This document shows, piece after piece, positions 26,841 through 62,353 of a stretch of 64,000 bases of DNA. The stretch covers positions 13,998 to 77,997 of the forward strand of contig JAENYX010000010.1 in NCBI GenBank assembly GCA_016841565.1. Direction: 5' to 3'. The notes beneath the pieces are model-generated. The model was not told the origin of the DNA. It worked only from the letters and a program-made list of their open reading frames with translations, and did no database searches. The stretch's first letter is position 1; every line of letters begins with the position of its first letter. This stretch comes from Clostridium thermobutyricum (GTDB lineage: Bacteria > Bacillota > Clostridia > Ch29). A program made the translations under genes and the position numbers.

Positions 26841-27935
26841 CTATTCCAGATCATATATATTAAGCTTTTTGTCTCCCAGCCTGGATGCATCAACCCTGTC
26901 TTCCATATCCCGTGGGACAGTAACCGTATTGGGATTCCCATCGCTGATATATCTGTCATGGGGATTATCATCAAAGTGTTCAATCCAATCATACATACCG
27001 GTACTTATTGTGGGATCGTCGGTAGCTCTTATTCTGGGTGTCCTTTGCGGGTTAAACTTCCCATCCACCGGAGAAGGCGCCGGGTTGGAACCCACTAACA
27101 GAACCACATCGTTTTGGTACTTAACCCCTTCATATACACCTTCATATACATACTCCCTGTACTGCTCCTTCGAATTTGCACCATAGGGCAACGCCAGAGT
27201 ATTCACTTTGTAATCAGGCAGGTATTTTCCCGTCTCGGCCGCCATTTTCCCCAATTGGAACTGAACGCCGTCGGCATCAAGAGTTCCAAGATTTGCATGC
27301 CCGTAAGTATGGTTGCCTATATCCATACCCTTTTCCACCAGGTACTTAAACTTATATTCCACCAGCTCTTTCTGCCGGAAGGGAATGGGATAATAAACAA
27401 AGAAAGTAGCTTCAAGGCCAAAATCCGGATGTTTCTGGTGAAAATTCTCCAGTATCCCCACCGCGCTCTTTGGATCTACTTCAAGCCTGCCGTCCTTTTC
27501 AATGATATTGAACTGTCCCTGGGTCCCGTCGTCAAAGGTAAGCACCACCGGGGTGTATCCGGCTTCAACATTAATGTTGTTGGAAACATAATCGCCCAGG
27601 CTTACAAGGCGATAGCCCTTATCGTACAGCACTTCCAGGTCCTTCTCAAAATTATCCCACCGTCGGGACCATTGGCCTTCGCTGTCTCCAATCACATGAT
27701 ACATAAGTATCATTATCTTCCCGGCTTCATTGGGTTTTACGGCCTGCAGGTCAATCTCCTCCTGCTGATCATTCCCCTGGGGCTGCTGTTCTTCATTGCC
27801 CGGCGTGCCGGACTGCGGAACATCTTCGCCGGTACCCGGCGTCGGGGTATCCACCGGCTGGGGAGGAGCAGTGCAGGCTGCTGCAATAAGTAATAACGAC
27901 AAAATAATTAGTATTACTGTTGTAGATTTAATCAT
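26841..27935 (-). CDS. Polysaccharide deacetylase family lipoprotein
   Basis: Lipobox-like AAAC, P/Q/E-rich linker, ILMYH, LTFDDG, GNHTYGH and ALPYG motifs. Confidence 0.85.
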   Translation of the reverse strand: MIKSTTVILIILSLLLIAAACTAPPQPVDTPTPGTGEDVPQSGTPGNEEQQPQGNDQQEEIDLQAVKPNEAGKIMILMYHVIGDSEGQWSRRWDNFEKDLEVLYDKGYRLVSLGDYVSNNINVEAGYTPVVLTFDDGTQGQFNIIEKDGRLEVDPKSAVGILENFHQKHPDFGLEATFFVYYPIPFRQKELVEYKFKYLVEKGMDIGNHTYGHANLGTLDADGVQFQLGKMAAETGKYLPDYKVNTLALPYGANSKEQYREYVYEGVYEGVKYQNDVVLLVGSNPAPSPVDGKFNPQRTPRIRATDDPTISTGMYDWIEHFDDNPHDRYISDGNPNTVTVPRDMEDRVDASRLGDKKLNIYDLE

Positions 27936-28060: not shown

Positions 28061-28756
28061 CTATTTGCTGCCAAAGGGGCAGACCCTCATACATATTCCA
28101 CATACCGAACCCCTTCCAATATGCCTGTAGCTGTCGTGCATATGAACACTGCAGGCATGGGCGTCCACCATCTGTTCCCTTTGCATACCGGCTTCCCAGT
28201 TGACTCCATGCAGCGCCATGGCTGGACAGCTTGTTACGCATAATTTACAATTACCGCAGCTGCCCTCTGTTACCGGCTGGCCATAGGGCAGCTCCATATC
28301 GGTCAGGACAGTGCCCATCCGTATCCTTGGGCCGTATTCGGGGGTAACAAGAAGACCGCTTTTCCCGATCCAGCCCAGCCCTGCCCGGGTGGCAGCCGTC
28401 TTATGCTGAAAAACGGATGAATATTTTTCCTGTTCTGTGGCAACCGTCTGGGACGCAGGCACCGCAAAGGCTTTTTGCCCCCATTCCTGCAAAAGCAAAA
28501 CGCAGCGCAGCGTAATCTGGTCAATAAGGAAATTCACCGAGCGATAATGATGGAAATAGGTATGGGTAGGCCGGCCGGATATTTCATCAACGATGAAATC
28601 GGATAATCTGACCATCACCGTTATTGCACTTTTTAAGGTTTTTTTGCTGTCGGGCAGAAGGTCTCCCACGTAGGAAAACCCGGTTTTACTGGCTCCCAGG
28701 CCAATTAAAAATTTTTCCAGTTCAGCAACCTTTTTATCCAATCTATCCACCTCCAT
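28061..28756 (-). CDS. Epoxyqueuosine-reductase-like 4Fe-4S protein
   Basis: AATRAGLGWIGKSGLLVTPEYGPRIR.G.VLT, CxxCxxCxxxCP and CxxCxxxCP motifs. Confidence 0.8.
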   Translation of the reverse strand: MEVDRLDKKVAELEKFLIGLGASKTGFSYVGDLLPDSKKTLKSAITVMVRLSDFIVDEISGRPTHTYFHHYRSVNFLIDQITLRCVLLLQEWGQKAFAVPASQTVATEQEKYSSVFQHKTAATRAGLGWIGKSGLLVTPEYGPRIRMGTVLTDMELPYGQPVTEGSCGNCKLCVTSCPAMALHGVNWEAGMQREQMVDAHACSVHMHDSYRHIGRGSVCGICMRVCPFGSK

Positions 28757-29004: not shown

Positions 29005-29226
29005 ATGGCAGCAGGACAACAAACCCCGGGCAAAAAGCTTGTACAGAAAGCACATCCTGCCCTTGATAATATGAAATATGAAATAGCAAGCCAGTTTAAT
29101 CTTCCCGTACATCAGGGTTCTGAGGATTACTGGGGAGGCCTCTCTTCGCGGGACTGCGGCAGAGTAGGCGGTGAAATGGTAAAGAGAATGATAACCATGG
29201 CCGAAAACCAATTGTCAGGTCAATAA
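29005..29226 (+). CDS. Alpha/beta-type small acid-soluble spore protein
   Basis: ALDNMKYEIASQFNL...SRDCGRVGGEMVKRMI.MAE; SD AAGGAGG. Confidence 0.92.
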   Translation: MAAGQQTPGKKLVQKAHPALDNMKYEIASQFNLPVHQGSEDYWGGLSSRDCGRVGGEMVKRMITMAENQLSGQ

Positions 29227-29310: not shown

Positions 29311-29850
29311 ATGGTCTACAGAGGTACCGAGGAGCTTGCCGAAAATAAGCTTATTCTCCTTTTTCTATTATCAGAGATTAAGTCACCGCTGACCAAGAAT
29401 CAGATTACACAGATTGTCATGGAAAACAGCCTGATGAACTATTTTTCCATGCAGCATTTCCTCAGCCAACTGGTAGATAAAGGCTTGGTTAAACATTATC
29501 AAGACATGGGGAAGCACCTTTATCTCATACAGGATCAGGGGCTGGATGTGCTGAAGCTCTTCTCTGCCAGAATCCCAGCCAAACTGAAAGAAGATTTGCT
29601 GGAATACTTTTCGGAAAAAGGACTGCTGTTTAAGAAGGAGCCCAATGCTCAAAGCAGTTATGTTATGGAAGACCAGGATACATATACGGTATGTTTGAGG
29701 CTTGCGAAAAAACGCAGTACGGTTCTGGACGCCAGGATCAAGGCTTCCTCGGAAGAGGATGCAAGGAAAATCTGCCAGAACTGGAATGCCAATGCCGAGA
29801 CCCTTTATGAGGATATTGTAAAGATTTTAATGGAGGGCCCGAAGGATTAG
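29311..29850 (+). CDS. DUF4364 family winged-helix protein
   Basis: ELAENKLILL, MNYF..Q..L..LV..GLV and A..IC.NW motifs. Confidence 0.8.
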   Translation: MVYRGTEELAENKLILLFLLSEIKSPLTKNQITQIVMENSLMNYFSMQHFLSQLVDKGLVKHYQDMGKHLYLIQDQGLDVLKLFSARIPAKLKEDLLEYFSEKGLLFKKEPNAQSSYVMEDQDTYTVCLRLAKKRSTVLDARIKASSEEDARKICQNWNANAETLYEDIVKILMEGPKD

Positions 29851-30803
29851 CCCATGGCCAGAACAGATGCAGGCTCAACTCCGGTTGATACGGTTCTTGT
29901 CACCAATCCTGTATTCAAGTCTACCTTATACAGGCAATTATCTATCATGCATACAACGTGCAGGTACTCCCCATTGCTTCCCAGAGATTGGCTTACAGGC
30001 ATCCTTCCCAGTTCTACTATCCTTTGGACAGCAAAACTGTCACTGTCTATTATAGTCAGCCGGTTGTCTACGGCGTCCACCGTATATATTCTTCCCATAC
30101 TTTCATGATATAACAAATTAACAGGCATGGTCCCAAGTTTTACATATTTGCACCTTTTACCCGAGTGAATATTATATTCCATCAGGCAATTATTTTCCTG
30201 TCTTTCATGGGATTGAACTATAATATACAGCCTTTGCCCCGCATTGTCACAGCACATATCCACCGGGTAACCGCCCACCCTCAGACAATCCAACTTATCC
30301 ATTGACAGGGCATCAATGACCGAGATATACTCACTTCCCGTATTTACTATATAAAGACGCTTATTCCTCTGGTCAAGCACCATTGACTGAGGCATTATCC
30401 CACATGGTATCTGGCCTATTATCTCCTGAATCTGCAAATCAATAACCGATACGCTGTCGGAATCGTAATTGGTGACGTATGCCCTGTTCTTGTATTCAAG
30501 AACCTTTATTTGATTGGGATGGCTGCCTGCAAAAATAGTGTTTATAACCTCCCGGGAGTTCAGATCGATTATGGAAAGGCTGTCATCGTATATATTGACC
30601 ACCAGAAGCTGGTTTTCGTCCGGCCGGTGGTACAAATATCCGGGACCAACCATGGGCCCTCTTGCAAAGTGATTTACATTAATCAGCTTGGTGCCTGCAG
30701 GCATTAGCAGTACCCTGAATACTTCCCGGTACGTTTCATTCTCATATGCAGTTATACTGTCATCTCCCATATTTGCCACAAGTACAATGCCTCTATCCTT
30801 CAT
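29847..30803 (-). CDS. YncE family beta-propeller protein
   Basis: Repeated YV.N..SD.(V/I)SVID....G..P blades; ATG 30803. Confidence 0.8.
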   Translation of the reverse strand: MKDRGIVLVANMGDDSITAYENETYREVFRVLLMPAGTKLINVNHFARGPMVGPGYLYHRPDENQLLVVNIYDDSLSIIDLNSREVINTIFAGSHPNQIKVLEYKNRAYVTNYDSDSVSVIDLQIQEIIGQIPCGIMPQSMVLDQRNKRLYIVNTGSEYISVIDALSMDKLDCLRVGGYPVDMCCDNAGQRLYIIVQSHERQENNCLMEYNIHSGKRCKYVKLGTMPVNLLYHESMGRIYTVDAVDNRLTIIDSDSFAVQRIVELGRMPVSQSLGSNGEYLHVVCMIDNCLYKVDLNTGLVTRTVSTGVEPASVLAMG

Positions 30804-30830
30804 TCCCACACCCCCAAAATATCTATAATC

Positions 30831-30860
30831 ATACTATGCGGAAGGCTTTGCATAGGTGTA
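30831..30860 (-). promoter_or_regulatory. Possible sigma-K-type promoter of the YncE-like gene
   Basis: Minus strand TACACC-16 bp-CATAGTAT, resembling the AC-N16-CATA...T mother-cell consensus. Confidence 0.4.
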
Positions 30861-30881
30861 ATAATTGGAACCCGTAAAGTT

Positions 30882-31008
30882 AAAAGCCCCCCGAATACTC
30901 GGAGGGCCTTTATATAAACAGCCGGCTTCAGACTCAGGTCGGATTTCCCCAATATTGCCTGAAACCGTACCGTCGGACCTTTTTCTAAATATAAGTATAT
31001 TTCTTATT
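30882..31008 (-). ncRNA. Candidate structured small RNA or riboswitch-like element with predicted pseudoknot and its own terminator
   Basis: TATAAT at 31015-31020; pairings AGGUC/GACCU and GGUUUCAGGC/GUCUGAAGCC; terminator AAAGGCCCUCCGA-GUAU-UCGGGGGGCUUUU at 30882-30911; no ORF. Confidence 0.55.
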
Positions 31009-31101
31009 AATTACATTATAACCACAGTTTGTTTTTCTAAACAACTACTTTAAGTTTTTTACTAAACAAAGCCGCCGCAGGTCACCGGGCAGCAACTGAT
31101 A

Positions 31102-31743
31102 CTACCTGCCCTTACTGTGTCTTGAGTCCAGTTCCCGGTAAACTTCCTTGTATTCTATCCCTTTTTGCAGCATCAGAACGGTTATATGGTATAAAAGGTC
31201 GGCTATCTCATATATGGTTTCCTGCTTTCCGGGGTTTTTGGCCCCTATAATTACCTCGGCCGCCTCCTCCCCGATTTTCTTCAATATTTTATCCATCCCC
31301 GTATCCAACAGATAGTTGGTATACGATCCCTCCCTGGGGTTTTTGCTCCTGTCTTCCACAATCCTGTACAGAGAATCCAATACATCTCTGTCCATTGGTA
31401 CCGTGCTGCACTGTGCTCCGCTGATATCCCTGTAAAAGCAGGACTTGCTGCCGGTATGACAAGCCGCACCCTGCTGGTCCACCAAAAGCAGCAGGGCATC
31501 CATGTCACAGTCAACGCTTATCTTTCCCACCCTCTGCACATTGCCCGAGGTCTCTCCTTTGTTCCACAGCCTCTGCCGGCTGCGGCTGTAAAACCAGGTG
31601 GTTCCTGTTTCCAATGTCCTTTCCAGAGCCTCATTATTCATATAGGCCATCATAAGAACCTGGCCGGTATGCATGTCCTGGACAATAGCCGGAATTAGTC
31701 CCATATGGTCAAATTTTAATCCTTTCACAACCGATTGTATCAT
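31102..31743 (-). CDS. hisIE: Bifunctional phosphoribosyl-AMP cyclohydrolase / phosphoribosyl-ATP pyrophosphatase
   Basis: [15 protein letters not shown] and ACHTG motifs; SYT..L...KKIGEEA.E. Confidence 0.96.
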
Positions 31744-62196: not shown

Positions 62197-62345
62197 AAAA
62201 AAAACAGACGGTATCCACCATGTGGATACCGTTATAAATGTGCCATTTATAACTCCTTTCCAACATGGGAGGCATAACAGTTTCCCGTTACACCCTATCG
62301 GCTTGGCATCATGGTCTCCCGTAGACGCTCAAGCTCGGAGTCTTA
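62197..62345 (-). ncRNA. Moco/W-cofactor riboswitch (P3-less, tungsten-associated type) with intrinsic terminator
   Basis: RNA CUCCGAGCUUG...CAAGCCGAUAG-GGUGUAACGG-GAAA-CUGUUAUGCC-UCCCAUGUUGGAAAGGAG; terminator ACGGUAUCCAC-AUG-GUGGAUACCGU-CUG-U8 at 62197-62232. Confidence 0.9.
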
Positions 62346-62353
62346 TTGATAAT

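Follow-up and report, generated by a model that had tools for sequence, protein, structure and literature searches.

A conserved candidate small RNA gene between hisIE and a beta-propeller gene in uncultured Clostridia

What is encoded by the spacer that separates the his operon from a YncE-like beta-propeller gene in the DNA studied here? The window, i.e., the whole stretch of 64,000 nucleotides that was analyzed, carries in this spacer a minus-strand element (30882-31044) that had been regarded in the original prediction either as an independent small RNA (sRNA) of about 125 nt or as an orphan pseudoknotted riboswitch controlling the beta-propeller gene. The genes and signals that frame the element are the following:

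31102-31743, minus strand, hisIE, the final gene of the his operon (Pfam PRA-CH and PRA-PH)
31064-31093, minus strand, hairpin (31071-31093) followed by UUUGUUU, located after hisIE (fold -13.2 kcal/mol), a terminator-like end of the his operon
30831-30859, minus strand, sigma-K-type (mother-cell) promoter of the beta-propeller gene (ACAC 30859-30856, 17 nt, CATAGTAT 30838-30831)
29847-30803, minus strand, YncE/YVTN-like beta-propeller gene, 318 aa (Pfam PF21783), downstream of the RNA
29311-29850, plus strand, DUF4364 gene, winged-helix-like, convergent with the beta-propeller gene and overlapping it by 4 nt
29005-29226, plus strand, alpha/beta-type SASP gene, convergent with the beta-propeller gene
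28061-28756, minus strand, 4Fe-4S protein gene
26841-27935, minus strand, polysaccharide deacetylase gene

The upstream gene is hisIE at every homologous locus examined. The beta-propeller gene has 18 orthologues with identities of 45-100%, followed by a sharp drop, and its product shows no obvious signal peptide. The SASP, DUF4364, 4Fe-4S and polysaccharide deacetylase genes form a neighbourhood with a sporulation flavour, and their order is syntenic across the relatives. One relative (the L007/L083 lineage) also carries a Clostridiales-2 RNA (RF02937) upstream of its DUF4364 gene (L083, 2351-2476, minus strand; 65.2 bits, above the gathering score), for which no counterpart was found in the window.

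The sequence of the element and the positions of its parts are as originally described, i.e., TTGTTT-18-TATAAT, an AU-rich leader, the segment running from AGGUC to GUCUGAAGCC (30980-30924, minus strand) and a strong terminator. We distinguish the following parts:

31015-31044, minus strand, predicted sigma-A-type promoter (-35 box TTGTTT 31044-31039, 18-nt spacer, -10 box TATAAT 31020-31015)
30975-31008, minus strand, AU-rich 5' leader, which varies in length and sequence in the alignment of homologues
30957-30974, minus strand, 5' strand of helix P1 (GACGGU 30974-30969, bulged A 30968, CGGUUUCAGGC 30967-30957), delimited by pair counts and RNAalifold
30934-30956, minus strand, terminal loop region of P1, 23 nt, which holds the GGG-GAAA-UCC hairpin and the GACCU segment and is hypervariable in the homologues
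30917-30933, minus strand, 3' strand of P1 (GUCUGAAGCCG 30933-30923, GCUGUU 30922-30917)
30907-30924, minus strand, near-invariant block CGGCUGUUUAUAUAAAGG, which extends from the P1 base through the linker into the foot of the terminator and was defined by invariant alignment columns
30882-30911, minus strand, intrinsic terminator (stem GGCCCUCCGA/UCGGGGGGCU, 30908-30899 and 30894-30885, loop GUAU, flanks AAA/UUU, U-tract 30885-30882)

Read from 30980, the minus strand contains AGGUCCGACGGUACGGUUUCAGGCAAUAUUGGGGAAAUCCGACCUGAGUCUGAAGCCGGCUG, then UUUAUAUAAAG, and then the GC-rich hairpin whose U-tract ends at 30882. Transcription would start near 31008, some 7 nt after the -10 box; the RNA would span from about 31008 to 30882, i.e., about 125 nt. 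The UUUAUAUAAAG segment is a single-stranded AU-rich linker at about 30916-30909, where the DNA forms a 10-bp palindrome (TTTATATAAA). The terminator folds with -22.7 kcal/mol, and a 151-nt segment of the element with -51.1 kcal/mol, compared with -34.7 ± 4.0 kcal/mol for shuffled sequences (z = -4.2; 0 of 200 shuffles were as good). A simple consensus scanner called neither the promoter, whose -35 box matches at 3 of 6 positions, nor the terminator, and thus the support for both must come from conservation and covariation. The transcript contains no open reading frame apart from a 50-aa frame with a TTG start (30800-30952), which crosses the hypervariable loop and is not conserved. The sequence UCCGA(C/G) occurs three times on this strand (30972-30977, 30938-30943 and 30898-30903), i.e., in the 5' flank of P1, in the P1 loop and in the 5' arm of the terminator; this repeat is confined to the window sequence and is not conserved.

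Homologous loci were collected from protein-anchored GTDB genomes, from contigs encoding each orthologue exactly, and by an exact-pattern scan of JGI metagenomes. We have obtained 13 distinct versions of the element (the window, L003, L004, L006, L095, L100, L005, L086, L007, L087, L009, L090 and L091), whose hosts are all uncultured Clostridia (MAGs and compost, digester and sludge samples). Strains of the L086 and L005 types occur in compost and digester material. Every one of the 13 occupies the corresponding spacer, with hisIE on one side and the beta-propeller gene on the other; the six matches of the metagenome scan all fall at this syntenic site. A covariance model built from the alignment detected the element once at each locus and did not find it again elsewhere in the 64-kb window, and a search of viral contigs found no element. 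One copy per locus, synteny and the lack of viral copies indicate a single-copy syntenic gene. The possibility of a repeat or a mobile element was also considered, and was ruled out by the same observations together with the exclusively syntenic metagenome matches.

The element is absent from at least six orthologous loci (L001, L002, L008, L089, L092 and L098), where a terminator comes right after hisIE and the promoter of the beta-propeller gene comes next. In these RNA-less relatives, the terminator resembles that of the RNA and has the form GGCUCUCC...GGAGRG. Having been lost in at least six related lineages, the element is dispensable.

Where the element is present, its parts are conserved to very different degrees. 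The TATAAT box is invariant in the 13 homologues and TGTTTA nearly so, with a spacing of 17-18 nt. A reading of the conserved GG upstream of TATAAT as part of a sigma-F or sigma-G promoter was also tried and discarded, since it fitted poorly to the consensus sequences. The leader is not conserved, and P1 lies at distances from the -10 box that differ several-fold among the homologues. The long helix opens with GACGGY-R-C, or with CAGYC-C in the divergent group, and continues with 10-11 bp in which the sequence shifts and the pairing is kept, as in GGUUUCAGGC/GUCUGAAGCC, GGGUUCAGACCC/GGGUCUGGAACC, GACUCCCGGUUGC/GCAACCGGGGUC and GAUUCCCGGCUAC/GGUAACCGGGAAUC. The loop of P1 is hypervariable both in length (4-36 nt) and in sequence. 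The following stretch, CGGCUGUUUAUAUAARGG, is nearly invariant and reads CGRCUGAUUAUAUAGRAAGR in three divergent members; the palindrome TTTATATAAA is broken in the divergent group (GAUUAUAUAGAAAG).

The original prediction had proposed that two helices interlock, and had named their covariation in the spacers between hisIE and the yncE-like gene as a check. One of them withstands it. The 10-bp helix GGUUUCAGGC/GUCUGAAGCC covaries across the 13 homologues and extends outward into a P1 of 17 bp with one bulged purine. In the MAFFT alignment P1 is 94% paired and 8 of its 17 pairs are changed on both sides; the terminator is 99% paired with six such pairs. Of 500 column shuffles, none attained the observed percentage of pairing, the both-sides counts or the covariation score; as regards further pair types, 52 of 500 shuffles of the MAFFT alignment and 30 of 500 shuffles of the 13-sequence alignment attained the observed count. 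When the 3' partners were slid by 1-3 columns, the pairing fell to 36-60% in the MAFFT alignment and to 34-60% over both alignments. The 13-sequence model-based alignment gave the same picture for P1 and the terminator, and RNAalifold recovered the same two helices independently. The choice of the minus strand, which had been based on G-U pairs that work only on this strand, is borne out as well: the sense strand folds more stably than the antisense strand in 13 of 13 sequences (mean -51.7 versus -37.5 kcal/mol), and conserved G-U pairs are frequent in the homologues. Both observations indicate that the minus strand is the functional one.

The second proposed helix did not survive the comparison. 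The AGGUC/GACCU pairing, which was to lock the pseudoknot, is formed in 55% of the alignment cells and is not kept across the homologues, and the GGG-GAAA-UCC hairpin, read as a GNRA hairpin, is paired in 37% of the cells. Since the loop aligns poorly, the pairing between leader and loop was also scored for each sequence against shuffled loops; it was no better than the shuffles in 12 of 12 sequences (z from -2.4 to +0.75), and its positions were inconsistent. In the window itself, the 5-bp complement has -7.6 kcal/mol and is equalled by 6.7% of the shuffled loops. The pseudoknot is impossible in L009 and L091, whose loops have 4-5 nt, and marginal in L090 (11 nt). The poor pairing in the alignment and the shuffle-level leader-loop duplexes thus identify the pseudoknot and the GNRA hairpin as coincidences of the window sequence, aided by the threefold UCCGA repeat. 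An inspection of the homologues for leader-linker pairing or a small 5' hairpin revealed short AU-only matches that are inconsistent among them, and no conserved antiterminator pairing was seen in their sequences; the MFE folds show P1 and the terminator alone. What is invariant belongs to the base of P1, to the linker and to the terminator, with no concentration of such positions in loops or junctions resembling a ligand pocket.

The failure of the original prediction to match the element to any known class holds for Rfam 15. At gathering thresholds, a cmscan of the whole window detected no family over the element. The only Rfam family in the window is a Moco (molybdenum/tungsten cofactor) riboswitch located 31 kb away (62237-62352, minus strand; 69.6 bits, threshold 36). 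A permissive scan of 30750-31150 gave as top match Phe_leader (21.7 bits against a threshold of 55, E = 0.26), which covers the terminator only, and a scan of four homologous loci found no consistent sub-threshold family over the element. Full-text searches of the literature gave no match, whether for the invariant sequence or for sRNAs connected with sporulation in Clostridia. The element is therefore absent from Rfam 15 and no description of it was found; it is structurally simple and belongs to a narrow uncultured clade of spore-forming Clostridia.

The relation of the element to the his operon differs between the window and most of its relatives. The interval from hisIE to the RNA promoter lacks the terminator hairpin of the window type in L003, L005, L007, L087, L009, L090 and L091, and most relatives have no terminator between the hisIE stop codon and this promoter, so that there the his operon transcript must end at the terminator of the RNA. 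The -35 box overlaps the end of hisIE in L007, L009, L090 and L091 and lies within about 15 nt of it in L003, L005 and L087. Thus, a layout embedded in the 3' UTR, with the promoter at the end of the coding sequence and a shared terminator, is found in most homologues; it is only partly realized in the window, where the separate hairpin (31071-31093) follows hisIE. A hairpin related to this one was observed in L100.

On the other side of the element, the proposal that the downstream gene has its own sigma-K-like promoter is well sustained by the orthologues. Their upstream regions contain ACAC-N16/17-GCATAGTAT(G/A), then TTATAGATATT, and then a GGGGG Shine-Dalgarno sequence, whether the RNA is present or not; in the window, the box reads ACAC-N17-CATAGTAT. 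The box is conserved in L001-L009, L087, L089-L093, L095, L098 and L100, the exception being L094, a short contig. In this most divergent orthologue (L094, 1-72), the conserved 5' UTR borders immediately on a terminator-like hairpin (GCUCUCUGAGUUUUCGAGAGC) that follows UGUAUAUAAAUAAAG, with neither a U-tract nor the CATAGTAT box; this arrangement is either a real promoter deletion or an assembly artefact. The sigma-K promoter consensus of B. subtilis is AC-N16/17-CATAnnnTA. The box fits this consensus, as well as the sporulation-flavoured neighbourhood (SASP, polysaccharide deacetylase), which suggests that the beta-propeller protein is a late mother-cell product of the spore coat type without a signal peptide. 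The spacer between the terminator of the RNA and this promoter varies in length and sequence.

Public runs containing the window sequence are metagenomic DNA runs, with no RNA-seq run among them. Two compost metatranscriptomes contain a strain identical to L086, and the depth of their contigs is uniform (3-8x) across all genes. At this low depth, the RNA and the 3' end of hisIE are both left uncovered by contigs, and small RNAs are liable to size selection. In the X17 metatranscriptome, the contig of the beta-propeller gene begins some 12 nt before the sigma-K -10 box and immediately behind the terminator of the RNA, which could reflect DNA carry-over, read-through or another start site; its first position is 5570 of L086 (plus-strand coordinates), equivalent to 3609 of L084. 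Concerning possible targets, complements of the linker are not enriched in the window (9 matches with up to 3 mismatches versus 7.8 expected), and the pairing of leader and linker with the 5' UTR and start region of the beta-propeller gene was no better than that of shuffles in five homologues (z from -1.8 to +1.1).

Taking the above together, we hold with moderate and evenly balanced confidence that the element is a conserved, independently promoted non-coding RNA gene of about 125 nt, formed by P1 and the terminator, probably acting in trans and of the type embedded in a 3' UTR, rather than a pseudoknot or a riboswitch. At the level of sequence comparison, it is directly supported by conservation, by the covariation of P1 and the terminator, by the strand and by synteny. 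The original alternative of an independent sRNA of about 125 nt hereby gains in silico support, its promoter, P1 and terminator being conserved or covarying in 13 homologues. Transcription from the predicted promoter and an action in trans are what we infer from these features. The sRNA would be expressed from its own sigma-A-type promoter and would consist of a variable leader, P1 with a hypervariable tip, the invariant linker and the terminator; in most relatives it would double as the 3' end of the his operon transcript, i.e., as a 3'-UTR-embedded sRNA. P1 and the terminator would confer stability, and the exposed invariant linker together with the P1 base may act in trans as a pairing seed or as a binding site for a chaperone or another protein. 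No exposed segment other than the linker is conserved. It adjoins the base of P1, which is conserved, bulged and rich in G-U pairs, and the two together most likely form the functional surface. The terminator of the RNA would, in addition, insulate the sigma-K-driven downstream gene from vegetative and his-operon transcription.

Other readings of the same data deserve to be weighed against this one. The element might be a structured 3' end of the his mRNA, i.e., a stabilizing and terminating module with a weak or non-functional promoter box, in which any sRNA would be a product of decay or processing. The constant presence of hisIE upstream, the lack of another operon terminator at most loci, the similar terminator placed directly after hisIE in the RNA-less relatives and the weak -35 box all speak for it. 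It is nevertheless hard to explain without a promoter function why TATAAT is invariant and accompanied by TGTTTA at a fixed spacing in 13 of 13 homologues; moreover, the window keeps the element even though a hairpin and U-tract already follow hisIE there, ahead of the promoter, and the invariance of the linker sequence exceeds what a stabilizing hairpin needs. We consider this reading unlikely. We regard as quite unlikely that the element is a cis-acting leader or attenuator, which would provide the beta-propeller gene with a second route of expression outside sporulation, from a vegetative promoter and through a terminator overridden by a protein or another signal. Its constant position immediately upstream of this gene and in the same orientation would agree with such a role, as would the resemblance of the G-U-rich bulged P1 base and the invariant linker to a protein recognition site and the start of the X17 contig about 12 nt upstream of the sigma-K -10 box. 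However, all instances are syntenic, so that the linkage to this gene is inseparable from that to hisIE, and the contig start may be DNA carry-over given the uniform depth of 3-8x across genes. A conserved promoter belongs to the gene itself, the element is missing from at least six orthologous loci, no conserved antiterminator pairing was seen by inspection, and the spacer between the terminator and the gene promoter is variable in length and sequence.

The orphan riboswitch (or ribozyme) of the original prediction, in which an H-type pseudoknot and a GNRA hairpin would sense a metabolite and control the terminator, has to be largely abandoned, and we judge it extremely improbable. The layout does resemble an aptamer followed by a terminator, and the window sequence, taken alone, offers the 5-bp complement at -7.6 kcal/mol; yet the pairing values of 55% and 37% given above, the shuffle-level leader-loop pairing in 12 of 12 sequences and its impossibility in L009 and L091 (marginal in L090) argue against it. 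The conserved nucleotides lie in the helix base and the linker instead of loops or junctions, the loop is hypervariable, no conserved antiterminator is apparent, the downstream gene is equipped with a promoter of its own, some of the orthologous genes lack the element, and no riboswitch or ribozyme of Rfam matches. A function at the DNA level, with the TTTATATAAA palindrome and the flanking inverted repeats serving as a regulator site or as a transcriptional insulator, is very improbable too. The perfect 10-bp palindrome does lie in the most conserved block, and the terminator, having an A-tract and a T-tract, could act bidirectionally, but the palindrome is broken in the divergent group (GAUUAUAUAGAAAG), and the compensatory changes, the abundant G-U pairs and the strand asymmetry of the folding energy point to selection on the RNA. 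A speculative and highly unlikely idea is that the RNA works specifically together with the beta-propeller protein, or that it terminates conditionally and thereby ties a spore protein to transcription of the his operon or to vegetative transcription. YncE of E. coli binds single-stranded nucleic acid. No copy of the RNA was found away from the beta-propeller gene, and the part of it that is most conserved combines a bulged, G-U-rich helix base with a fixed linker, which is not typical of a seed; against this, at least six lineages have the protein but not the RNA, and the RNA is no less strictly syntenic with hisIE. If this idea were true, the bulged P1 base and the linker would be a specific recognition site, and a new RNA-protein pair would have been found in sporulating Clostridia.

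If the sRNA gene is transcribed as predicted, it would represent an uncatalogued sRNA family with structural support in a poorly studied clade of uncultured Clostridia from compost and digesters. It would also be a Gram-positive case of an sRNA gene lodged in the 3' end of an operon for amino-acid biosynthesis, beside late-sporulation genes. Such an RNA could make other pathways depend on histidine or amino-acid status. The covariance model might serve as the basis of an Rfam entry; no new mechanistic category is opened.

Among the known systems, the pseudoknot riboswitches preQ1-II, SAM-II and fluoride resemble the element in placing a structured region and, behind it, an intrinsic terminator in front of a gene. 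The element differs from them in lacking a conserved second helix, a conserved loop or junction core and any apparent antiterminator, in that the gene has its own promoter, and in that Rfam gives no match. The Clostridiales-2 RNA (RF02937) is, like the element, a candidate orphan sRNA of Clostridia, and is found in the same gene neighbourhood in one relative, but its sequence, structure and position, upstream of the DUF4364 gene, are different. The Hfq-binding module defined by Ishikawa et al. in 2012 is reportedly composed of a hairpin, a U- or AU-rich single strand before the terminator hairpin, and a poly-U tail. The element presents P1, the AU-rich linker UUUAUAUAAAG and a terminator with a U-tract in the same layout; unlike in Hfq-type sRNAs, the linker is invariant in sequence and not merely U-rich, and the U-tail is short (3-5 U).

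The closest parallel is found in sRNAs that have their own promoter and share a terminator with the upstream mRNA, which is the arrangement of DapZ, MicL and MicX (PMC9438474); the promoter of DapZ lies just upstream of the dapB stop codon (PMC9438474). The element has no sequence or structural homology to these sRNAs, its hosts are Gram-positive Clostridia, in which a dependence on Hfq is uncertain, and the window has a separate hairpin after hisIE. As in DapZ of Salmonella, MicL of E. coli and MicX of Vibrio, the promoter coincides with or closely precedes the stop codon of the biosynthetic gene located upstream in L007, L009, L090 and L091, a Rho-independent terminator is common to the sRNA and the upstream operon, and the predicted transcript is short, with a conserved single-stranded segment adjoining the terminator.
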